This document shows positions 2,859-61,954 of a stretch of 64,000 nucleotides of DNA, one piece after another (the first letter of the stretch is position 1; each line of letters begins with the position of its first letter). This DNA comes from a virus (Duplodnaviria > Heunggongvirae > Uroviricota > Caudoviricetes), in IMG/VR virus record IMGVR_UViG_3300045988_145635; one strand, written 5' to 3'. The notes under the pieces were generated by a model. That model had not been told where the DNA came from and did no database searches. It saw only the letters and a list, made by a program, of their open reading frames with translations. A program made the position numbers and the translations under genes.

Positions 2859-3003
2859 GTAAGTGTTTACCTATCATTTTAAATCATGTATCTTATCGGC
2901 GTCAGGATGACAATGTGTCGGTAAGACACAGTTCCAGGATGGAACGAGAAAGGCGGCTGGCAATCGCCAGCCGCAACTCTTTCTGACACTGGATGGAGTC
3001 CAC

Positions 3004-3498
3004 ATGGCACGTCAAACCTATTTCACTTCTGCAACTAAACGTCCTCGTTCACTACGTCAAATTTTGGCCGAATTATTTAGCGGTCGTGTTCTGTCACGTC
3101 TTGATGAACTAGAGACTGCCGTTCGGTTGCTGAATGAACGTTTAGATAAGCAAGCGTCAGTTGTTGCGAACGTGGGGGCGATTGTTACCTCTGGTTCTTC
3201 ACGCGAAGCGAAAAGTACACGGCCTTTAGTGAAGGAGAAAAACAACAAGGACAGTTCGAATGGAAAATTTTCAAAGAAAGAGGCTGAAACCAATGGCCTA
3301 CGTTCTCATTATAGTTTCACTGGCGACGGTAGCCGTTCCAGCCGGCCAGAGCCTTTTGATGCCGGGTTCATCCATCACCACACCTCCGTCGACGACAATT
3401 ACCACCACTCCAGTAGAGCGTCCTGTCACTCTGGATGGGATGACGGTGGATGCGATACCTCAAGTTCATCCAGTTACTCAGGATCATGCTGTGACTAA
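3004..3498 (+). CDS. Hypothetical protein (Ser-rich low-complexity C-terminus)
   Basis: ORF with GGATGGAG upstream; an overlapping alternative frame encodes a hydrophobic peptide so the true frame is uncertain. Confidence 0.3.
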   Translation: MARQTYFTSATKRPRSLRQILAELFSGRVLSRLDELETAVRLLNERLDKQASVVANVGAIVTSGSSREAKSTRPLVKEKNNKDSSNGKFSKKEAETNGLRSHYSFTGDGSRSSRPEPFDAGFIHHHTSVDDNYHHSSRASCHSGWDDGGCDTSSSSSYSGSCCD

Positions 3499-3507
3499 GG
3501 CGGTTGT

Positions 3508-3705
3508 ATGAACTGGTTTTCAAATCACTTTGGAAAAACTTGGCTGGCGATTCTGGCTTTCATAGCTCTCATGGCCGCCGGTTGGGTATCGAACATTGTA
3601 AAACTCGTTTGCTCTGGTGATCTCCAGTTTCAGGCTGGTATGACCTTGGCTCGTGTTGTTGGGATTTTTGTTTTTCCAGTCGGTTCGGTACTTGGTTATT
3701 TCTGA
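3508..3705 (+). CDS. Small membrane protein (2 predicted TM segments)
   Basis: 65 aa, hydrophobic stretches LAILAFIALMAAGWV and VVGIFVFPVGSVLGYF. Confidence 0.4.
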   Translation: MNWFSNHFGKTWLAILAFIALMAAGWVSNIVKLVCSGDLQFQAGMTLARVVGIFVFPVGSVLGYF

Positions 3706-3798
3706 CGGTTGTTAGTGCATATGCATTGACCGTCTTTTCGTAAGCAATTCATGTAACTAGAAAACAACTTGTTTTAACAAATAACAAAAGGAAAGCAC

Positions 3799-4224
3799 AT
3801 GTTAGGTTTATTCAAAAAGAAAACTCGTAAAGCTGTTATCGAGGTCAAAAAAATGGAGAACCGAGATGCGGTTGAAGCCACCGTGTGGGGCGCGTACATG
3901 ATCTCCTATGCCGATGGCACATGCGACGCAAAGGAAATTTCCATTCTTGAGAAAACAATTGCAGCTCTGCCTGCGTTTTCTCCGTTTGCTGGTGAGATTG
4001 CCCAAATGAGCGCCAATATCCGTGCTCAATACGAAGCCTCACCGCGCCGCGCTAATGCCCAGGCTTTACGTGAGCTGGCTGATGTGGCCGGGACTAATGA
4101 TGCAGTAGATGTACTGTGTCTGTGCCTTGATATTGCCGACCAAGACGGTATTGGCGAACAAGAAGAGCTGGCCCTGAAAAAGATCGCACAGGCGCTTCAG
4201 TTGTCACTGGATGCTTATCTCTAA
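3799..4224 (+). CDS. TerB-like domain protein
   Basis: Two DG-x-x-D/E-x-x-E-x-x-x-L segments (YADGTCDAKEISILEKTIAAL; DIADQDGIGEQEELALKKIAQAL) as in TerB-family proteins; operator motif A upstream. Confidence 0.55.
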   Translation: MLGLFKKKTRKAVIEVKKMENRDAVEATVWGAYMISYADGTCDAKEISILEKTIAALPAFSPFAGEIAQMSANIRAQYEASPRRANAQALRELADVAGTNDAVDVLCLCLDIADQDGIGEQEELALKKIAQALQLSLDAYL

Positions 4225-4382: not shown

Positions 4383-4521
4383 TGACAAGGGCCAAATGGC
4401 CCTTGTGTTTCGTTGACCGAAATAGAGAGTTTGCACCTTTACGTTTAGCTTGCTCCCCTTTTATGCCACATCACAATAAAGCCAATAAGAAAACAACTTG
4501 TTTAAGCATTAGGAAAAACAC

Positions 4522-7895: not shown

Positions 7896-8600
7896 ATGAA
7901 CAACCTCCAGTTAGAGCATTTTAACGTCACAGGCCATTCTGATTTTCCTTTCAAGTTTACATTGAAAGGTTATGCAGAGGATGCGGTAGGCCAGATCATT
8001 ATTGATAAAGGCATCGTTAAGTTTGAGGGGGATTTTGATGAATCCGCGAAAACATTCATAGACTTCGTTGCCAAACGTTGGAGCGAGCAATGGAAAAACC
8101 TGGAAAAGCGCGCCAATGAGTTTGATCGGTTCATGGATGCAATGGATACAGCAAAAGAGGCTCTTGATGCCGGGACTCCGTTAGATCTGGAGTCACTTTT
8201 CAACGGCGAAGTGGCCTCTGCGATGTTTGCCACCATGTTCGCGGGTGAGTTCGTCCGCAGCGGTGCCAAAAACTACCTTGAGCTGGATTACAACGTCCCT
8301 GCAATTGGCGATTTCGTCGTTACCATCCAACGCAAAGAAGGTAAGACGCCAGGTGAACGCGTCGCAGAGCTTGAGGCCGTTGTGGATCAGCGTAACGGAG
8401 AGTGTGACCGTTTGATCAACGAGCTTCATGCACTTCGGGAAGAAAGAATATGCGCGGGTAGTAATACACGTAATGCAGCGGATATCTACTTCCAGTTAGT
8501 TGAGGAATGCCAGATTCCACCAGGTGGCTCTCTTGTCGATTACGTAAGACATTTAATGGCGGAAGTTAGCTCCAGCCATAAAGATGGTGAGGTGCGCTGA
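7896..8600 (+). CDS. Hypothetical protein
   Basis: 234-aa ORF; motif B site upstream (7833-7854). Confidence 0.5.
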   Translation: MNNLQLEHFNVTGHSDFPFKFTLKGYAEDAVGQIIIDKGIVKFEGDFDESAKTFIDFVAKRWSEQWKNLEKRANEFDRFMDAMDTAKEALDAGTPLDLESLFNGEVASAMFATMFAGEFVRSGAKNYLELDYNVPAIGDFVVTIQRKEGKTPGERVAELEAVVDQRNGECDRLINELHALREERICAGSNTRNAADIYFQLVEECQIPPGGSLVDYVRHLMAEVSSSHKDGEVR

Positions 8601-8980
8601 TGTTTGGCATTGACGCACAGCGTATAGCCGCTTTTGCAAAAAGCCCTCTTGATAATCCCTTGTCTCGTAGTGAGCAAATGGAGCTGGCAAGGCTTTTTCT
8701 TCACATTCAAAAACAGGCAGACATTTTCAATAACATGCCTAATCAACCTATTCTGGATGGTCACATCCAGATGGTCATTAACAGTCATGAGAAAGGCTGG
8801 GCTGCAATCGTCCCCAGCACAATTACATACAAGTTGGCGAAAGAGGTTCAAGAGTTTCGAAAAGCCAGTGTCGAATCTGAGTCTACCAAAGCCGCAATAA
8901 ACACTCTTATTCGCATGGGATTCACATGGAACGGTGGAGCCTACTGGCAAGCACCTCACCCCATTTTATCCGGCAATTAG
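8600..8980 (+). CDS. Hypothetical protein
   Basis: Start overlaps upstream stop (TGATG); 126 aa. Confidence 0.5.
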   Translation: MFGIDAQRIAAFAKSPLDNPLSRSEQMELARLFLHIQKQADIFNNMPNQPILDGHIQMVINSHEKGWAAIVPSTITYKLAKEVQEFRKASVESESTKAAINTLIRMGFTWNGGAYWQAPHPILSGN

Positions 8981-9035
8981 ACGCTACAAATCCTTCTGCG
9001 TGAATAAATAAAGGCCATAAGTTGTGGCCTTAAAT

Positions 9036-9091
9036 AAATTGTTTTCTGCCTTTTCTTATTTGTGAAAATAACCACAACTAGAAAACAACGG
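9036..9091 (+). promoter_or_regulatory. Conserved promoter/operator module (TTGTTTTCTGCC ... GAAAACAA half-sites)
   Basis: ~45-bp module shared with 17143-17210 and 21217-21262, lying directly upstream of a start codon. Confidence 0.5.
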
Positions 9092-9099
9092 AGTTAAGA

Positions 9100-9741
9100 A
9101 TGTCTAGTATTTCCGAAGCACATATGTTCGCCGCTGGCGCTCATGGTGGCGTTGGTCAGAAAAGAAAATATACCGGCGAAAACTACATCAACCACCCGGT
9201 TGCTGTCCGAGAGATTGTTGCATTGCATGACGGAACCGTGGAGATGCAAATCGCGGCGCTTCTGCATGATGTGGTCGAAGACACCCATGTAACCATAGAG
9301 ATGGTTCGTGATCACTTCGGTGAGCGCGTAGCTGAAATGGTTCAGGCTCTGACCAACATTGCAAGGCCAGAAGACGGCAATCGAATACAGCGTTTCATCA
9401 TCAATGTCCGGGAGCTGGAGCAAAATCTCGACATGCAGACGCGCATGATCAAGCTGGCTGACCTGCTCGACAATACCTCTTCTATCGTGAGTCGCGATCC
9501 TGAGTTTTCAGCTATCTACCTTGCAGAGAAAGAGCTGATGCTGGACGTACTTTTTAACGGGAAGGAGATTGGTGCCAACGCTGATGTTGTCGAGTACATG
9601 GAGAGGATAGGTATAGAACACCCGTTGTTATTAAGCGCAAAGGCGAAAGTCACTGAAGGTATTGCGCTTCTGAAACCGGTACACATCAAACGTTATGAAA
9701 AACACAAATCGCTGATCTGGAGCGCGTGGGAGGCTGCATGA
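9100..9741 (+). CDS. HD-domain small alarmone hydrolase-like protein (RelA/SpoT hydrolase fold)
   Basis: HPVAVREIV ... AALLHDVVEDT matches the (p)ppGpp-hydrolase HD signature; 213 aa single-domain size. Confidence 0.65.
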   Translation: MSSISEAHMFAAGAHGGVGQKRKYTGENYINHPVAVREIVALHDGTVEMQIAALLHDVVEDTHVTIEMVRDHFGERVAEMVQALTNIARPEDGNRIQRFIINVRELEQNLDMQTRMIKLADLLDNTSSIVSRDPEFSAIYLAEKELMLDVLFNGKEIGANADVVEYMERIGIEHPLLLSAKAKVTEGIALLKPVHIKRYEKHKSLIWSAWEAA

Positions 9742-10280
9742 AGGTCGAAAAAATAGATGTTCTTTCCTTTGTGCTGACGGATCTGGAACGCCTCGATCCG
9801 GTTCGAGTGATGATTGAAAACTACGAACCTGGTAAGGGAAGAATCACCATCACCTGCTACGGAAAAGCGTGGACTGCGGCTTGGTTTGCTATGGGCGGTG
9901 ATGATGTGCAGACGTTCATTAAGCGAGTTAGCAACGATTATCTAATCGACAATTTCGACCCTCAACTGCTAAGCACGGTCGACGATGACAACGATGCAAA
10001 TCTGCTTTTCGTAAAGTCAGAAATCATAAAGTTACGAAGAGAGAGAGAAATAGACGCCGTACTGGCTCGCGAAATGTGGGACGAGGCGGAAAACGCCGAT
10101 GACGTAAAAGAAAGCTGCTGTTGTTTCGGCGTCGGTAACAAACTGCTGAATCTCTTTGGTGATGATCCGTGGTATGCCGACTGGCCAACGGTACCAAACC
10201 CGAAATACCAGTATCTGGAACGCATTGTGAACGCGGTACGTGAAGGGCTGAAAGAGTTAGATAAGTTAGAGGCATCGTAA
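9738..10280 (+). CDS. Hypothetical protein
   Basis: ATGA overlap with upstream gene, GGAGG RBS. Confidence 0.5.
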   Translation: MKVEKIDVLSFVLTDLERLDPVRVMIENYEPGKGRITITCYGKAWTAAWFAMGGDDVQTFIKRVSNDYLIDNFDPQLLSTVDDDNDANLLFVKSEIIKLRREREIDAVLAREMWDEAENADDVKESCCCFGVGNKLLNLFGDDPWYADWPTVPNPKYQYLERIVNAVREGLKELDKLEAS

Positions 10281-13340: not shown

Positions 13341-13730
13341 ATGGGCTTCCCTTCTCCTGCGGCGGATTATGCTGAGAGCCGTATTTCTCTTGATCAGCAG
13401 ATAATTAGACATCCTTCAGCGACCTACTTCATGAGGGCAGCTGATAGTCATCATCGTGAGGGAATATTGCAGGGCGCATTGCTGGTGGTCGATTCCTCAC
13501 TTACCCCGGTTGATGGTTCTCTGCTTGTATGCGCTCTGGATGGGGAATATCGCGTAAAAAGATACCGGAAGTATCCACGTCAGCATCTGGAGGATTTAAG
13601 AACTGGTAAGAAGGAAGCATTGCCAAAGGATGACGATGGATGCACGGGCAGCAATGCCGTGTTTGGTGTGATCACTCACATTATCAACGACGCAAGAAGT
13701 GGCGAGTTTGATGATTGTCCTGTGATGTAG
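13341..13730 (+). CDS. UmuD-prime-like S24 peptidase-family protein (HumD-like, pre-truncated UmuD mimic)
   Basis: Begins MGFPSPAADY, i.e. at the position of the UmuD self-cleavage site; conserved Ser (ADS) and Lys (VKRYRK) positions; SOS box upstream. Confidence 0.7.
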   Translation: MGFPSPAADYAESRISLDQQIIRHPSATYFMRAADSHHREGILQGALLVVDSSLTPVDGSLLVCALDGEYRVKRYRKYPRQHLEDLRTGKKEALPKDDDGCTGSNAVFGVITHIINDARSGEFDDCPVM

Positions 13731-13767: not shown

Positions 13768-14868
13768 TCACACTGCGCGGAATGCGATTTCGCCAGGTAT
13801 TACTTCACCTTGCCAATACATTTGGGCAGCAACGCGATCTGCGAGGTCACGATAAATAGCCGTAAATTCGCTATCTGGACGACTAATAACGGTTGGTGTT
13901 CCGTTATCCAGATCTTCACGAAGAGAGATATGAAGTGGCATTTGGCCTAACAACTGCGTGTTGTATTTCTCGGCCAGTTTCTGTGCGCCACCGGTGCCAA
14001 AAATTGGCTCGTGATGACCGCAGTTACTGCAAATATGCACACTCATGTTTTCGACGATACCCAGTACCGGCACTTCGACTTTTTCGAACATCACAATGCC
14101 TTTCTTCGCATCGATCAGCGCGATGTCTTGCGGCGTAGTTACCACAACCGCACCAGTTACAGGAATGTTCTGCGCCAGCGTCAACTGAATATCACCAGTG
14201 CCCGGCGGCATATCGAGAACGAGATAGTCCAGATCAGGCCATAGAGTTTCCTGCAACATCTGCATCAGCGCCTTGCTGGCCATCGGTCCACGCCACACCA
14301 TTGCATTGTCGTCGGTGACCAGATAACCAATAGAGTTGGTTGCCAGGCCATGAGACATGATAGGTGCCATGTGAGTACCGTCCGGTGAGGTTGGACGTTG
14401 GTTTTCCGCGCCCAGCATGGTTGGAATTGATGGACCATAGATATCGGCATCCAAAATACCAACTTTCGCACCTTCAGCAGCCAACGCCAGTGCCAGATTT
14501 ACCGCCGTGGAGGATTTACCTACGCCGCCCTTGCCTGAGCTGACGGCGATAATGTTCTTAACGCCATTAATGCCTGGTTGGTTTTTGACGCGCTTAAGCG
14601 TGGCAATGTTGTACGACAGCTTCCAGTCAATAGCCTTTGCGCCAGTGATACGGAGCAGATCACCACTACATTGCTCTTTCAGGTCTTCAAAAGGCTTATT
14701 CCACACGAAAGGCATGATTAGTTCGACATGCAGTGTGTCATCCATCAACGCAACATGGTGTAACGCTTTAAGCGTAGTCAGGTTGTGTTTCAGGGTTGGG
14801 TGCTGAAAATTAGCCAGCGTACCGGCTACCATTGCTCTCAGGGCATCCGGCGATTTGGACTCGCTCAT
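13768..14868 (-). CDS. apbC: Fe-S cluster carrier ATPase ApbC (Mrp)
   Basis: 366 aa; Walker A SSGKGGVGKSS, CxxC (CSNCGH); near-identical over its length to enterobacterial Mrp as I recall it. Confidence 0.93.
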   Translation of the reverse strand: MSESKSPDALRAMVAGTLANFQHPTLKHNLTTLKALHHVALMDDTLHVELIMPFVWNKPFEDLKEQCSGDLLRITGAKAIDWKLSYNIATLKRVKNQPGINGVKNIIAVSSGKGGVGKSSTAVNLALALAAEGAKVGILDADIYGPSIPTMLGAENQRPTSPDGTHMAPIMSHGLATNSIGYLVTDDNAMVWRGPMASKALMQMLQETLWPDLDYLVLDMPPGTGDIQLTLAQNIPVTGAVVVTTPQDIALIDAKKGIVMFEKVEVPVLGIVENMSVHICSNCGHHEPIFGTGGAQKLAEKYNTQLLGQMPLHISLREDLDNGTPTVISRPDSEFTAIYRDLADRVAAQMYWQGEVIPGEIAFRAV

Positions 14869-15025
14869 CCCGTCTCCTTTATTTTAATTTGCGCAATTGT
14901 CGCCTTGTAGTGTACTCCAGCTACGACATTTAATCATTTATGAGAAATGCTGTTATCACATGGCAGACATAAGGCCATTTTGTTACTATCAAGCCCCTTT
15001 TCACTACAAAGAAGTAATGCCTACT

Positions 15026-17059
15026 ATGACCCAAGTCGCGAAGAAAATTCTGGTGACGTGCGCGCTGCCGTACGCTAACGGCTCAATCCACCTCGGCCAT
15101 ATGCTGGAGCACATCCAGGCTGATGTCTGGGTTCGTTACCAGCGAATGCGCGGCCACGAGGTTAATTTCATCTGTGCCGACGATGCCCACGGTACGCCGA
15201 TCATGCTGAAAGCGCAGCAGCTTGGTATCACACCGGAGCAGATGATTGGCGAAATGAGTCAGGAACACCAGACTGATTTCGCAGGCTTTAACATCAGCTA
15301 TGACAACTATCACTCGACGCACAGCGAAGAGAACCGTCAGTTGTCTGAGCTTATCTATACTCGCCTGAAAGAGAACGGTTTTATTAAAAACCGCACTATC
15401 TCTCAGTTGTACGACCCGGAAAAAGGCATGTTCCTGCCGGATCGTTTTGTAAAAGGCACCTGCCCGAAATGTAAAGCGCCAGATCAATACGGCGATAACT
15501 GTGAAGTCTGCGGCGCAACATATAGCCCGACTGAATTGATCGAGCCGAAATCGGTGGTTTCTGGCGCTACCCCGGTAATGCGTGATTCCGAACACTTCTT
15601 CTTTGATCTGCCTTCTTTCAGCGAAATGTTGCAGGCATGGACCCGCAGCGGCGCGTTGCAGGAGCAGGTGGCGAACAAAATGCAGGAATGGTTTGAATCC
15701 GGCCTGCAACAGTGGGATATCTCCCGCGATGCGCCTTACTTCGGTTTTGAAATTCCGGACGCGCCGGGCAAATATTTCTACGTCTGGCTGGACGCGCCGA
15801 TTGGCTACATGGGTTCCTTCAAGAATCTGTGCGACAAGCGCGGCGATACCACCAGCTTCGATGAATACTGGAAGAAAGACTCCACCGCCGAGCTGTACCA
15901 CTTCATCGGTAAAGATATTGTTTACTTCCACAGCCTGTTCTGGCCTGCCATGCTGGAAGGCAGCAACTTCCGCAAGCCGACCAACCTGTTTGTTCACGGC
16001 TATGTGACAGTGAACGGCGCGAAGATGTCCAAGTCTCGCGGTACCTTTATTAAAGCCAGCACCTGGCTGAATCATTTTGACGCCGACAGCCTGCGTTACT
16101 ACTACACTGCGAAACTCTCTTCGCGCATTGATGATATCGATCTCAACCTGGAGGATTTCGTTCAGCGCGTGAATGCCGATATCGTGAACAAAGTGGTTAA
16201 CCTGGCCTCCCGTAATGCAGGCTTTATCAACAAGCGTTTTGACGGCGTGCTGGCAAGCGAACTGGCTGACCCGCAACTGTACAAAACCTTTACTGATGCC
16301 GCTGAAGTGATTGGCGAAGCATGGGAAAGCCGCGAATTTGGTAAAGCTATCCGTGAAATCATGGCATTGGCTGACCTGGCTAACCGCTATGTCGATGAAC
16401 AGGCTCCGTGGGTGGTGGCGAAGCAGGAAGGGCGCGATGCCGATCTGCAGGCGATTTGCTCTATGGGCATTAACCTGTTCCGCGTGCTGATGACGTACCT
16501 GAAACCGGTACTGCCGAAACTGACTGAACGTGCAGAAGCATTCCTGAATACAGAACTGACCTGGGATGGTATCCAGCAACCGCTGCTGGGCCATAAAGTG
16601 AATCCGTTCAAGGCACTGTATAACCGTATCGATATGAAACAGGTGGAAGCACTGGTGGAAGCATCCAAAGAAGAAGTGAAAGCCACAGCCGCACCGGTAA
16701 CTGGCCCACTGGCTGACGACCCGATTCAGGAAACCATCACCTTTGACGACTTCGCCAAAGTTGACCTGCGTGTGGCGCTGATTGAAAACGCGGAGTTTGT
16801 TGAAGGCTCTGACAAACTGCTGCGTCTGACACTGGATCTCGGTGGGGAAAAGCGTAATGTCTTCTCAGGCATCCGTTCTGCTTATCCCGACCCACAGGCA
16901 TTGATTGGTCGTCACACCATTATGGTGGCTAACCTGGCTCCGCGTAAAATGCGCTTCGGTATCTCCGAAGGCATGGTGATGGCTGCTGGCCCCGGCGGGA
17001 AAGATATCTTCCTGTTAAGCCCGGATGCTGGTGCTAAACCTGGCCACCAGGTTAAGTAA
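15026..17059 (+). CDS. metG: Methionine--tRNA ligase
   Basis: HIGH motif (ANGSIHLGH), KMSKS motif, zinc knuckles CPKC/CEVC, C-terminal tRNA-binding domain; start chosen at [11 protein letters not shown] (the ORF-track start at 14897 is an upstream extension). Confidence 0.96.
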
Positions 17060-17142: not shown

Positions 17143-17210
17143 AAAACAATTTGTTTTCTGCCTTTTGTTAATTGAGATAATAAGCCACATAAGAAAACAA
17201 ATTGTTTCGG
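17143..17210 (+). promoter_or_regulatory. Paired operator motif A sites (AAAACAATTTGTTTT and AAGAAAACAAATTGTTT) flanking a GATAAT -10-like hexamer
   Basis: Two palindromes 48 bp apart immediately upstream of the 17221 start. Confidence 0.55.
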
Positions 17211-17220
17211 AGTGGTTGAA

Positions 17221-17520
17221 ATGTTGAACATTACCCAAGCCTACCAGGTGGCATTGATCAGTTCATCTCATACATCAGAGGAAGATGCTCGTCGATTCAT
17301 GATCGCAAGCAATGAGCTGGATTGGGTTTCGCAAATTGACGGCGGTTGTATTGTCCACGCCGGGTTACAGGATGATGTCTGGAAAGACGACTTGCGTCGA
17401 TATGGTATATCCGAAGGCGCGATTGCTAACATTCAGAAAGTACTTGATGTAGGCTTTGACTCTGTACATTTTGATTGTGGTGCGCCGGTCGTTGAAGGGC
17501 TTGAGTGCTGGAACTGGTAA
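17221..17520 (+). CDS. Hypothetical protein
   Basis: ATG with GGAGTGG spacer; first cassette of right arm. Confidence 0.5.
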   Translation: MLNITQAYQVALISSSHTSEEDARRFMIASNELDWVSQIDGGCIVHAGLQDDVWKDDLRRYGISEGAIANIQKVLDVGFDSVHFDCGAPVVEGLECWNW

Positions 17521-17565
17521 CAGATATTAAAGCATTGGTAGTTTGTTTTTAGGATTATCAAAGAA

Positions 17566-18300
17566 ATGAAAAAGTTGAAAAGTTTAGAAATCCCTGGGAC
17601 TGGTTATAAATTCTTTATGGACAACGCGGAGTGTGCACCTAACGCGTTGGAAAAAATACAAAGTCTTATCAACAGCCTTACTGAAGAAGCGAAAGAACTG
17701 AAGAGCGAGGCGACAAAGGACAATACAGCTAAAATCCAATGCTTAAATCTCGTTTCTTATTGTTTATATCAAGTGTCCAAGACACTGATTAAAGGCAATA
17801 TCTATTACGACGATGAAGACACCTCGACACCTGAAGAAAAAGATAGCGATGAAGAACTCTATGAAGATATCTCTACTAGTGCGGGTCACGCTGCCTTCGA
17901 TGCTATGGGTAAATCGTCAGGCATCAGATCATTTGTTGAACAGAACAATTCGACAATAATGATTGAGTACTGTGAACAAACAAGCTCCAAGGCCATACAT
18001 GTTCTTCACGATGTTGCTGCAGGGGTTCGCTGTGAGGCTGAAGCGGTCAGAAAAGATGTATTTGGTGCAGACAGTAATACCGTGAAAGCGTTCATCAACA
18101 GTGCTCTGCTAAATTCTTACTCAAACCTTATCGTCAATGCGGCACTATGCGCAAATTCTGGTGAAGAACACATTGTCATAACCGAAACCAAATATGAGCA
18201 TCAACAGTCACCAACCATAGAAGAGGTAACTGCATTGGCTATCAAACAGGCGAGTGAAATTAGTGATGAAATTCTCTCTCTGCTAAACAAAACTAAGTAA
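17566..18300 (+). CDS. Hypothetical protein
   Basis: 244-aa ORF; no motif recognised. Confidence 0.5.
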   Translation: MKKLKSLEIPGTGYKFFMDNAECAPNALEKIQSLINSLTEEAKELKSEATKDNTAKIQCLNLVSYCLYQVSKTLIKGNIYYDDEDTSTPEEKDSDEELYEDISTSAGHAAFDAMGKSSGIRSFVEQNNSTIMIEYCEQTSSKAIHVLHDVAAGVRCEAEAVRKDVFGADSNTVKAFINSALLNSYSNLIVNAALCANSGEEHIVITETKYEHQQSPTIEEVTALAIKQASEISDEILSLLNKTK

Positions 18301-18379
18301 AACATTGATAATGGCGGTCACAATTTGATTCTTTTCTATAAGAATCCGTTGATCGCCACTACTCCCCTTCCATGCCTGG

Positions 18380-19200
18380 AATCACATCCTTAAATATCAA
18401 TAGGTTACAGTTGTTTATACCAATAAGAAAACAACTGAATAACAGATCAACGAAACATCAACGCTTTCACCCGATTTGGTCTAAAAAATTGACGTTTTCA
18501 CACATCACTGCTTATACCCGTAATTCTACGCAGCAGACAGCGCCACAGCGTCCAATTTTCACCACAGACGACCCAACACACTACCAACAAAAACACACGC
18601 TCAAAATCGTTCCCGTTGCGTTACATAACCATATAAACAACTTATTTTCAGGAATAACAAAACAACTAAATAACACATATGCCATTCCCAAAACAACCAA
18701 CCTCTTTATGGCAGGCTACCGAAAAGACCCACCTCTTCTTCCCAGGCTACCGGACAACCAACCTAACTTTCACAGGCAATCCGAAAACATTCATACGCGC
18801 GATACCCACGACACGCCATTACCCAAACAACGAAGAAACACCTGAACCACTGAAACCCCAACGAAGCCTGTTACCGCAAGGATTCTCTCAATCCCAAAAG
18901 ACACGAAACATAACAATCACGGGAAACGCCATTACCCAATACACGAATAACTACAAAAGCCCTTCACACACTCCAGACAAACAACTCAAACACAATAACG
19001 AAAGGAATCGCCCACCTGCCATTACTCCATACACGGAGAAGAACAATCACCAAAACGACGAGAACACCCCATAGAAGAACCACCGCAAAACGAACGAAAC
19101 CACATACACCGACAGAGAGAACAACACACCCAATTCACCAACAGAAATAGTCGCCGTATAGAACGTTCTGGAAGGAGTGAGCATTAACGCCTATAGAGAG
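18380..19200 (+). other. ORF-poor, strongly strand-asymmetric A+C-rich tract (G- and T-poor on the plus strand)
   Basis: ~0.8 kb dominated by A and C; contains short repeated CAGGCTACCG-like and CCACCTCTT motifs; six-frame ORFs here translate to low-complexity sequence. Confidence 0.55.
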
Positions 19201-19497: not shown

Positions 19498-19854
19498 CCG
19501 GTATAGCGTGAGGGAGAGTTGCGGCTGTCCACCTGTAATGTGCGGGAAGAAGAGAGGCGCTCACGTGCAGGCGAACTTACTTACCGTTGGACTCCCTCTG
19601 AATGCCCAGCTACAGCGTAATTGTGCCAGACAGTCAGCGGGTCACAATCGATTTCAGTAGGTTTTCGGGGAGAGGATTATTCTGCCCACCAGCCACCTTC
19701 GGCCACTAAATCAGAATAATGTAAAAAGTGTACTCGGTACTGAACCTGAAAACTCACTGCCAAAACCACATTCACCGGAATAAAATCCTTTTTCGCCTGT
19801 GCGTTATTGCGATAATAACACCAACAAGAAAACATGTTGTTTAAGGATTGCTTT

Positions 19855-20184: not shown

Positions 20185-20338
20185 CCCCAACCAAAGCCAG
20201 CATTGCTGGCTTAACTTAATCTGTAGCCGCAGGGAAGAACCTGCATATCGCCCATGCACCTGATCAATATGCTTTGTAGCCGTTTTCTTACTGGTATTAT
20301 TTACGCCATTGAGAAAACAAGTTGTTTACGGAGTTGTG

Positions 20339-21173: not shown

Positions 21174-21290
21174 TCCTCTTTAAATGGCGCGTAAACCGCG
21201 CCATTTTCTTATACCCGATAACAATTTGTTTTCTGCCTTATCTGATTTGTGAAAATGATTTCACTGAAGCAACTTAATAAGGAAACCATC

Positions 21291-21810: not shown

Positions 21811-22014
21811 ATTATTAAGGCCACCAGCATTGGTGGCCTTAAATGACCATCCTGTTTCCCGCAGGCTAAAACACCAACCTCTTACCTCCAGGCAACCGAC
21901 AAACCCACCTGTTCCCGTCCGGCTACCGCAACTTTCCACTTTGACGCCTTATTCGTACAACGATAATTAACACCAACAAGAAAACAATTTGTTATTTACG
22001 ATAAGGAATTAATC

Positions 22015-22626: not shown

Positions 22627-23114
22627 ATTCGCCTTTGTGTAGAAAAAAACATCGGGAAGCTGGTGGAATCCAACCAGCGGTTGTCGGACAGGTGAGCGGG
22701 GAAAATTATGATGACTTTCGTCGCCTGAGACATCCAGATTTCTTTCGTAGCATAATCACATACGTGATTAAGTGGTGTGATTATGTGAAAAATCACGCGC
22801 ACATAATACGCGAGCGGATACGGAACAAAACAAAATGCCGATCCGCGCCGACAAATAAACGCGGATCATAAAGCAAGACTAAAAGCCAATGATTAACCAT
22901 ACACCATAACGCAATATAACGCGTTTTAAGCGCGTTAATGCGCTAAGTAATGGGTATATACTGGTAAGGATATAAAAGCTCGTCTGTGGCGTTATTTTGG
23001 CGCTTATTTTTATGTTGTTGGAGTGAGTCAAAGACAATAAAAAAAGCGCCATCATTGGCGCGTTATGGTGGAAGTATTGGAAACGAAAAAAGCGCCCATA
23101 GTGGGCGCTCGATT

Positions 23115-23351
23115 TTATTTATGTAAACTGATTTCAAATCCCATTTCTACAAACGCTTTTAACATTAAAAATATATCAGCGTCATTCACGTCTGCTTTTT
23201 TTCGCTCCTGGTCGCTCAATAAGTCAATTTTGCGCGTCGTTTCATCTATAAGCTCGACTGCGCGCCCAGCGTAACCAGCGATCCCAGCGATGCGATTAAC
23301 ATAATATTCGTTATGGACGTTAACGCCAGCGATAAGAACAAACATGATCAA
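23115..23351 (-). CDS. Hypothetical small protein
   Basis: ORF bracketed by GCGCCCATAGTGGGCGC hairpins. Confidence 0.4.
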   Translation of the reverse strand: MIMFVLIAGVNVHNEYYVNRIAGIAGYAGRAVELIDETTRKIDLLSDQERKKADVNDADIFLMLKAFVEMGFEISLHK

Positions 23352-23569: not shown

Positions 23570-23616
23570 TTTAAAGCTCCTTTAAAGCGCCCATAGTGGG
23601 CGCTTGATTCCATTAA

Positions 23617-24267
23617 TTACGCTTTGAAAGCATCAGCTAGATAATTGTAGAAATCATTCTTGATAAAGCGATATTGCTGCGTACCAGCTTTCGCGCTCCC
23701 AGCTCCTTTGACTTTTTCAACAAGTCCAAGACGTTCGCAAAGATTGATCAACTGGTTGGCTTGAGTATAGCCAGCGTCCAATTTAATCTCGCACGCTTTT
23801 TTCGCTTCATTCATTAAATCGAAAACAGCGCCATTGGTGAACGTGTCGATCTCGTCGTTAATCATATCGATTAAAGCGAATACACGAGATCCTGACATAT
23901 CAGCGACGGAATAAACACATTTACCAGCTTTAATGGATTTAACCAGATAAACCAGTTTTTCCAGTGAATAACTATTAGTCATTGCATCACGGAAAAATAC
24001 TTCTGGCGCTTGTTTACTTGCTTTGATCGCATAGTAGAAAACAGAGCATAATTTTTCGTCTTCTACTGCGTTTACGACGTTGTTGATGAAGTAAGCAAGT
24101 TTAGTGGTAGCAGCTTGCATATTTGCTTTGTCTGCTTTGGTGTGCGTACCATTTTTATAATGTTCATTATATGTTTGAGTTGCCAGATCTGCTTTTTCGC
24201 GCAGCTCGTCGGATACAATGGATGCAGCTTCAATGATGGATTTTTTAGAAATGATAATGTTAGCCAT
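23617..24267 (-). CDS. Hypothetical protein
   Basis: 216-aa ORF with its own upstream AT-rich leader. Confidence 0.5.
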   Translation of the reverse strand: MANIIISKKSIIEAASIVSDELREKADLATQTYNEHYKNGTHTKADKANMQAATTKLAYFINNVVNAVEDEKLCSVFYYAIKASKQAPEVFFRDAMTNSYSLEKLVYLVKSIKAGKCVYSVADMSGSRVFALIDMINDEIDTFTNGAVFDLMNEAKKACEIKLDAGYTQANQLINLCERLGLVEKVKGAGSAKAGTQQYRFIKNDFYNYLADAFKA

Positions 24268-32719: not shown

Positions 32720-32813
32720 AATTAAACACCCCAGAAAACAAGTTGGTTAGCATATGCAGTAAACAAGTTGTTTTAGAGCGCATGGACGCGCTCTGTGTGT
32801 TTTAGAGGGATCT

Positions 32814-60869: not shown

Positions 60870-61391
60870 TTATTCTTCGAACAATTTTTCGATAGATTTT
60901 GTAGGATAGAACAAAGAACGCTCGTTGTTACCAACCAGCTGGATAAAGCCTAAACTTTTATAAAACGCCTTGGCTTTGTCATTTAACGCCTCAACGAAAA
61001 GTCCATGAATGCCTACAGCAAGAGATGCATTGTACACAACGCGCATTGCATGTGTTACAAGCATTGAGCCAAATCCTTGACCTTGAAGGGACTTGTCCAA
61101 AGCCAGCCTACCCAAAGTAACACTTGGAACATTCCGATAAGGAACCTTCTTTTGTTTGCTTCTTGAAGGTAAGGACTCCTTTTCAAAACAACTACCTGAC
61201 AAAGTGTAATATCCTAACACTTTTGGCCTTTCTTCTTGAGTGCAAAGCACATAAGCACGAAGAATTTTTCCCTCATGCTGCCTTTTTAAGTGGTTGGCTA
61301 AAAAGGCGTTTAGTGACTCTTCGCCGCAATCAAAACCGTTTAGATCATAATCTTTCTCTCCAGAGAAAATCTCTATCGTTGTATTGCTCAC
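60870..61391 (-). CDS. GNAT-family acetyltransferase toxin (TacT/AtaT/ItaT-like)
   Basis: 173 aa; GNAT core (QGQGFGSMLV); paired with an upstream DUF1778-type gene. Confidence 0.7.
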   Translation of the reverse strand: MSNTTIEIFSGEKDYDLNGFDCGEESLNAFLANHLKRQHEGKILRAYVLCTQEERPKVLGYYTLSGSCFEKESLPSRSKQKKVPYRNVPSVTLGRLALDKSLQGQGFGSMLVTHAMRVVYNASLAVGIHGLFVEALNDKAKAFYKSLGFIQLVGNNERSLFYPTKSIEKLFEE

Positions 61392-61398
61392 GAGTAAA

Positions 61399-61668
61399 CT
61401 ACTCCATGCTTTTCAGACGATCAGCAGCTCGTTTCAGCTTGTCGTTCGGTGCCGGAGGATTGCTTATAGCGTCCATAACCAGATTCCAGGACTCTTCACT
61501 CAGAACCAGTCTTCGATGTTGCTCTATAACTTTCACGGCACGTTCAGATGCACTGCTAACCATAAACTGAGTAATGCTCTGGTTAGACATTGCGGCAGCT
61601 TCCTCGATGATGCTTTTATCGTCATCGGTTAATCTCAAATCGATGCGCTGCTTTTTTAGTGCTGACAT
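61399..61668 (-). CDS. DUF1778-type RHH antitoxin (TacA-like)
   Basis: ~89 aa from the AGGAGG-preceded ATG; immediately upstream of the GNAT gene on the same strand. Confidence 0.65.
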   Translation of the reverse strand: MSALKKQRIDLRLTDDDKSIIEEAAAMSNQSITQFMVSSASERAVKVIEQHRRLVLSEESWNLVMDAISNPPAPNDKLKRAADRLKSME

Positions 61669-61934
61669 GTATTCCTCCTGATGGCCGTGATGTAGGAAGG
61701 CCATCAATCTCCTCTGTTCAAACTGAGTTTTCGACTCAAAAATTACTTTAAAAGGCTATAGCCCATTACGTGTGCATTATCAAATTGTGTACGGCATATC
61801 ACCGTACTTGTAATATAGAGGTCATTGTTACTTTTTTCAACAGACAAATACAAGCTATGATTGCCAATTGTTAATCACAACCTACCATTTAACCTTTACA
61901 CCGCAGCCGTAGGCATTTAGGCTATATCACATAT

Positions 61935-61954
61935 AAGAAAACAAGTTGTTTCAG
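61935..61954 (+). promoter_or_regulatory. Operator motif A site upstream of the ParA-like gene
   Basis: AAGAAAACAAGTTGTTTCAG palindrome 33 nt before the start. Confidence 0.5.

Follow-up and report, generated by a model that had tools for sequence, protein, structure and literature searches.

The open reading frame at positions 9100-9741 (+) of the 64,000-nt stretch of DNA analysed here (the window), 213 aa long with an ATG start and a TGA stop and delimited exactly as in the first-pass annotation, was confirmed by profile matches, catalytic residues and predicted fold to encode a single-domain RelA/SpoT-type small alarmone hydrolase (SAH). Its close orthologue by sequence, PaSpo of Salmonella phage SSU5, has been both classified and put to functional tests before, and in this respect the gene is already known. 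As the protein family, the subfamily and the neutralisation of all tested toxSAS by PaSpo have been published, this allele adds little to them. The interest now lies in its natural biology, that is, whether the enzyme defeats toxSAS, mutes the stringent response or does both, and at what time it is expressed.

The first-pass annotation had recognised a RelA/SpoT hydrolase signature in a single-domain protein, and the profile searches bear this out. The motif reads N31-H32-P33 followed by A52-A-L-L-H56-D57-V-V-E60-D61-T62, and the Pfam model for RelA/SpoT-type HD domains, HD_4, scored 67.8 bits (E = 1.2e-18) against a cut-off of 27.2 bits, so the signature is not a chance match. The general Pfam HD model was also passed, and PHROG 990 ('metal-dependent phosphohydrolase') matched with an E-value of 1.4e-54. 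TIGR00691 (spoT_relA) aligned over its model positions 1-123 only (E = 1.2e-24), and the long RSH models of NCBIfam likewise matched only with their N-terminal ~125-150 positions, the hydrolase part, with scores far below the full-length cut-offs. HD_4 and HD were the only domains that the profile searches found in the protein, with neither a synthetase domain nor TGS/ACT regulatory domains. Its best sequence matches in the PDB were the hydrolase domains of SpoT and Rel, human and fly MESH1, and bacterial SAHs.

The catalytic positions were mapped on MESH1 3NR1, with the residue numbering and roles that the literature gives for this structure. In the HMMER alignment, H32, H56-D57, E60-D61, D121 and N125 fall on H35, H61-D62, E65-D66, D122 and N126 of MESH1, and R22 falls on R24, so that the catalytic residues R22, H32, H56-D57, E60-D61, D121 and N125 are all in place. 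In the window the codons lie at 9193-9195 (H32), 9265-9270 (H56-D57), 9277-9282 (E60-D61), 9460-9462 (D121) and 9472-9474 (N125). A loss of the metal ligands, which had been put forward as the observation that would speak against an alarmone hydrolase, was not seen, with H32, H56-D57 and D121 all present. The metal-binding and catalytic residues are moreover invariant across 33 aligned homologues of 43-88% identity, a set that does not contain the SSU5 sequence and from which an AlphaFold2 model was built (mean pLDDT 96.1, pTM 0.92). The model has the all-helical RSH hydrolase fold; its best 50 Foldseek matches in the PDB were all RSH hydrolase domains, and its target-normalised TM-score to MESH1 3NR1 was 0.83. 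The protein also carries two extras of its clade that ordinary SAHs of ~175 aa do not have, a segment at residues ~153-172 and a basic C-terminal helix at 193-212. By homology, the product is very likely to be an active stand-alone Mn2+-dependent 3'-pyrophosphohydrolase of the RSH superfamily.

Aligned without gaps, the protein is identical to SSU5_099 (AFL47026.1) at 186 of 213 residues (87%). Of the 27 substitutions, 17 fall within the C-terminal 63 residues, and the catalytic positions are unaffected. A tblastn search found a single RSH hydrolase homologue in SSU5, namely SSU5_099, and on this ground we infer that SSU5_099 is the SAH called PaSpo in the literature and the protein encoded by the cloned construct. 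The gene order is also common to SSU5, with a DUF4942 methylase-like gene and a hypothetical gene followed by the hydrolase and then by an overlapping downstream gene. Together, the full-length identity, the conserved flanks and the presence of one homologue in SSU5 support orthology within the PaSpo subfamily. Between the window allele and that of SSU5, dN/dS was 0.18 overall, 0.12 for residues 1-150 (the catalytic core) and 0.24 for residues 151-213, and the overall value indicates purifying selection on the gene. In RefSeq, identical copies are named 'HD domain-containing protein'.

Within the RSH classification of Jimmy et al. 2020 (PMC7229694), PaSpo is the SAH through which the PaSpo subfamily was tested. 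When co-expressed in E. coli, it neutralised all five toxSAS that were assayed, i.e. CapRel, PhRel, PhRel2, FaRel2 and FaRel (PMC7229694), and it has since been used routinely to detoxify overproduced CapRel-SJ46, PhRel2 and FaRel2 and thereby keep the cells alive. The product of FaRel is (pp)pApp, while CapRel, PhRel, PhRel2 and FaRel2 pyrophosphorylate the CCA end of tRNA. Reversal of the tRNA modification by SAHs was measured in vitro with MESH1 and ATfaRel; the direct in vitro hydrolysis results that we found in the literature concern these two enzymes and none was found for PaSpo, for which reversal of the CCA modification would follow from the rescue phenotype. The proposal of the first-pass annotation that the protein could counter toxSAS has thus in effect been demonstrated with an orthologue of 87% identity, and the window SAH should, like that orthologue, be able to undo the products of toxSAS.

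The likely mechanism can be outlined by homology with MESH1 and Rel. Residues H32, H56, D57 and D121 would hold the metal ion, the E60-D61 pair would activate water, and R22, K23, Y24 and N125 would bind the substrate. The enzyme would then cleave the 3'-diphosphate off (p)ppGpp and (p)ppApp, with tRNA that has a pyrophosphorylated CCA end as a probable further substrate. Such a range of alarmone and tRNA substrates could account for the rescue from both kinds of toxSAS by the SSU5 enzyme. The physiological substrate might instead be NADPH or a 3'-phosphorylated nucleotide of the PAPS type, as has been described for human MESH1. MESH1 is the closest structural match, its NADPH and PAPS complexes (5VXA, 9CHY) included, and published work has MESH1 as an NADPH phosphatase. 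The phenotype demonstrated for the orthologue, however, is the neutralisation of pyrophosphokinase toxins (PMC7229694), and we regard a non-alarmone substrate as very unlikely.

The gene had been described as phage-borne; the element that carries it is an SSU5-like phage-plasmid and not a plain phage. The flanking DNA matches that of SSU5 and further phage-plasmids of the SSU5 type, and a segment made up of the gene and its upstream spacer recurs with 100% identity in ~109-kb E. coli plasmids. These plasmids encode a RepB replication initiator and ParB-domain partition-type proteins, along with a complete set of tail, capsid, portal and terminase proteins. The sequence matches identify the window as an SSU5-like phage-plasmid of E. 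coli. The composition profile showed no GC anomaly that would mark the SAH gene as a recent import.

Among 5426 complete E. coli genomes, the gene was present in 41, always on plasmids of ~104-156 kb and never on the chromosome. In PLSDB, 208 Escherichia records have an SSU5-type terminase and portal, and only 88 records match the SAH region at megablast level. The version found in Klebsiella elements is ~52% identical. In Escherichia phage Cyrano, where positions 3001-4100 were set against 8600-9741 of the window, the 126-aa upstream gene, the hairpin and the spacer with its promoter module are kept, while the hydrolase is missing and a different gene follows the module. The allele has decayed in several relatives: one (P0011), found on 139 contigs, is truncated at residue 139, and in another (P0009) the HD pair is changed to HG (LLHGVIED). 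Two fusions, with a foreign N-terminus in place of the catalytic half, have lost the metal ligands, one joining the N-terminus of an AAA-ATPase to the hydrolase from residue 60 on (P0010) and the other an N-terminus like that of the window protein encoded at 7896-8600 to the hydrolase from residue 77 on (P0012). In some E. coli plasmids, only the first 39-44 bases of the gene remain, and in two of these the match lies under an annotated transposase gene of the IS5/IS1182 family. The absence from Cyrano and the truncated, fused and HD-to-HG alleles of relatives indicate that the gene is dispensable and accessory. PHROG 3451 joins the N-terminus of the 7896-8600 protein to the protein encoded at 9738-10280, and this fusion and the gene swap in Cyrano make it evident that genes in this region are exchanged as cassettes. 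It is of interest in itself why the allele is matched by fewer than half of the related Escherichia plasmids, and why decayed alleles occur among its relatives.

In the window, the stop and start codons of consecutive genes overlap at 8598-8602 (TGATG), 9738-9741 (ATGA), 10278 and 10881 (both TAATG), and 11533 and 11913 (both ATGA). The overlaps from 9738 through 11913 confirm the chain of coupled genes in which the first-pass annotation had placed the hydrolase. The gene directly downstream (9738-10280 (+)) encodes a 180-aa protein of PHROG 3451, for which some RefSeq records use the name 'phiTE_072 family protein'. The ATGA at 9738-9741 contains both its start and the SAH stop, which suggests translational coupling, and the same overlap is found in SSU5 and in the Klebsiella phage pJN2-26. 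An antisense open reading frame of 109 aa at 9094-9423 was taken as a by-product of the SAH coding strand.

The SAH gene is located in a block of nucleotide- and replication-related genes, comprising nrdAB and the genes for thymidylate synthase, DHFR and RNase H. This setting would suit an enzyme that mainly degrades host (p)ppGpp and so blocks the stringent response, allowing replication or lytic development to proceed in starved cells. In line with such a role, the enzyme shares its catalytic centre with SpoT, Rel and MESH1, all of them (p)ppGpp hydrolases, and homologues occur in many large lytic phages that have no obvious link to toxSAS. On the other hand, E. coli already has SpoT, and the gene is absent or decayed in many close relatives that still persist. 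As the main function, degradation of host (p)ppGpp is therefore possible but doubtful in our view. Damping of the stringent response ranks after the pre-emption of toxSAS immunity, and the two are not exclusive, as both can hold together.

A type IV antitoxin would need a toxSAS toxin on the same element, as is the case for ATfaRel, an SAH of Cellulomonas marina. We found no RelA/SpoT synthetase domain in the nine proteins neighbouring the hydrolase, and no synthetase is annotated anywhere on the related 108.5-kb plasmid NZ_CP126951.1, which carries an identical SAH gene. PADLOC returned no matches for the hydrolase and four of its neighbours, so the locus is not a recognised defence system. 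With no synthetase partner in the neighbourhood, on the related plasmid or among PADLOC matches, membership of a toxSAS module was rejected; the antitoxin reading is effectively refuted and the SAH is regarded as an orphan.

Elsewhere in the window, a full-length methionyl-tRNA synthetase with a C-terminal tRNA-binding domain is encoded at 14897-17059 (+), beside genes for an ApbC/NUBPL-type P-loop ATPase and a stand-alone S24 (LexA/UmuD-like) peptidase domain protein (13768-14868 (-) and 13341-13730 (+)). A TacA-like antitoxin and a GNAT acetyltransferase, encoded at 60870-61391 (-) and 61399-61707 (-), form a TacAT-type pair, a second tRNA-related function on an element that bears both the hydrolase and a tRNA synthetase.

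The hydrolase gene is the first gene after a spacer of 119 nt, which is conserved in SSU5, pJN2-26 and phage Cyrano. The spacer contains a GC-rich, terminator-like hairpin of the form AAGGCCA-loop-TGGCCTT at 9011-9031, located between the upstream operon and the promoter module. In pJN2-26, the pairing of its stem is retained through compensatory changes (AAGGCTAT/ATAGCCTT), and it probably terminates or insulates transcription. It is followed by an operator-like site, AAATAAATTGTTTT / TTGTTTTCT, at 9032-9047, which lies over the -35 region and is a member of the palindrome family AAAACAAnTTGTTT, and by an extended -10-like element, TGTGAAAAT (TGnGAWAAT), at 9061-9069 (+). This element would imply a transcript start near 9076. 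Between it and the Shine-Dalgarno sequence there is an operator-like half-site, AGAAAACAA, at 9080-9088 (+). The Shine-Dalgarno sequence, read from the sequence as GGAG at 9090-9093 (+), 6 nt before the ATG, is kept in SSU5 and pJN2-26, and the -10-like element is identical in the spacers of SSU5, pJN2-26 and Cyrano.

The spacer shares its arrangement with other places in the window. A 61-nt module with TGnGAWAAT is common to four copies, at 9028, 17140, 19775 and 21215, with the -10-like element at the same place in the other three (17173, 19808 and 21248). The half-site AGAAAACAA recurs without mismatch 15 times in the window, where 1.4 would be expected, and most of its copies directly precede the starts of + strand ORFs; the palindrome AAAACAAnTTGTTT has 22 matches (0.4 expected). 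Copies of AAAACAAnTTGTTT(T), nearly always just upstream of + strand ORF starts, were located at 3759-3775, 4488-4504, 9032-9047, 9080-9088, 17143-17157, 17192-17208, 18426, 19827-19842, 20312-20328, 21218-21232, 21979-21995, 32733-32774 and 61936-61952. The element's helix-turn-helix and S24 proteins are candidates for binding the palindrome AAAACAAnTTGTTTT. The over-represented core, its recurrence at + strand genes and the conservation of the spacer show that the 'conserved promoter module' of the first-pass annotation is a real repeated element. As a strict sigma-70 consensus scan called no + strand promoter upstream of the SAH gene, its reading as a promoter is inferred from the repeated extended -10-like element. 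The module would be a repressor-controlled promoter, and the palindrome set looks like the regulon of one phage-plasmid DNA-binding regulator. Such an operator-flanked module offers a handle on the question of when the hydrolase is made.

Other repeats were also seen in the window. The ~1.5 kb at ~17520-19070 have no annotated CDS in a related RefSeq plasmid, for which the PLSDB table omits RNA genes and pseudogenes. Imperfect repeats spaced ~30 nt apart, AAACAACCAACCTCTT...CAGGCTACCG, are present at 18691-18786 and again at 21868-21932, and a second family is found at 18676-19040 (repeat families D3 and D4). TRF and a tRNA scan of the window, the ~17520-19070 region included, returned nothing. 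The repeats at 18676-19040 and 21868-21932 could be iterons or arrays of binding sites. In addition, a 34-nt element (family D10) is present in two copies, at 23089-23122 and 23584-23617, which are 88% identical and 495 nt apart. The element contains a perfect GC-rich hairpin, AAAGCGCCCATAGTGGGCGCT, and then a T-rich tail, and the two copies are probably paired terminators.

The hydrolase gene is the first behind a repeated, putative promoter/operator module, is probably coupled translationally to the genes downstream and is located in a variable accessory slot, and its product may act to pre-empt toxSAS abortive-infection immunity when the element infects a cell or is induced. We consider the pre-emption of toxSAS-type immunity such as CapRel, PhRel and FaRel2 its most likely natural role, with a confidence that falls a little short of an even chance. 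A more elaborate version of this role is speculative, and we put it forward only tentatively. The SAH may be a dedicated counter-defence gene under repressor control, switched on at infection or induction, that allows escape from the CapRel-type immunity of prophages and P1-like phage-plasmids; its basic C-terminal helices (~153-213) would be an adaptation to 3'-pyrophosphorylated tRNA, and its patchy distribution and decay would be traces of an arms race. If this is true, SSU5-like phage-plasmids escape the toxSAS of competitors in the same enterobacterial hosts.

The enzyme could also benefit the lysogen, by detoxifying the (p)ppApp that competitors inject by way of Tas1/Apk-type type VI or MuF-associated toxins, as chromosomal SAHs and Aph1 do. 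PaSpo did rescue cells from FaRel, a maker of (pp)pApp (PMC7229694), and the Pseudomonas SAH and the (p)ppApp hydrolase Aph1 are relatives in fold and sequence. The match to Aph1 (7SMG, E = 2e-6), however, is much weaker than those to SpoT, Rel and MESH1, and if the promoter is repressed in the plasmid state, as we suppose, the SAH would be off when it is needed. We therefore consider a benefit of this kind unlikely, and pre-emption of toxSAS immunity remains the role that we favour.

Compared with known hydrolases, the window SAH shares with Aph1 that both are HD-type alarmone hydrolases, Aph1 being often prophage-encoded. The query-normalised TM-score to 7SMG was 0.44-0.49. Aph1 is a shorter protein of 149 aa whose partner is a MuF-fused synthetase toxin, whereas no such toxin is found beside the window SAH. 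With 7SMG well below SpoT, Rel and MESH1 among the matches and no synthetase in the neighbourhood, membership of the Aph1 family was rejected.

The bacterial SAHs that were compared, i.e. those of P. aeruginosa (6YVC, 6Z3N/O) and Leptospira (7QOE) and RelH of C. glutamicum (7QOC/D), have the same fold and single-domain architecture, as do the PbcSpo-type ATfaRel and the SAH of PVP-SE1. In sequence the bacterial SAHs are more distant, with E-values of 1e-4 to 3e-9 compared with 1e-13 for SpoT/Rel. ATfaRel is part of a toxin-antitoxin operon, unlike the orphan described here. Neutralisation of toxSAS is common to PbcSpo members as well (PMC7229694). Human and Drosophila MESH1 (3NR1, 5VXA, 3NQW) share the single-domain RSH hydrolase fold and have identical metal-binding and catalytic residues, and MESH1 neutralises FaRel2 and restores the modified tRNA. 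It differs in its identity of only ~26%, and the segment ~153-172 and the helix 193-212 belong to the phage-plasmid protein. PaSpo/SSU5_099 differs in its host, Salmonella and not E. coli as here; it is like the window SAH in its length of 213 aa, in the upstream hairpin and promoter module, in the downstream ATGA overlap and in its location on an SSU5-like phage-plasmid.
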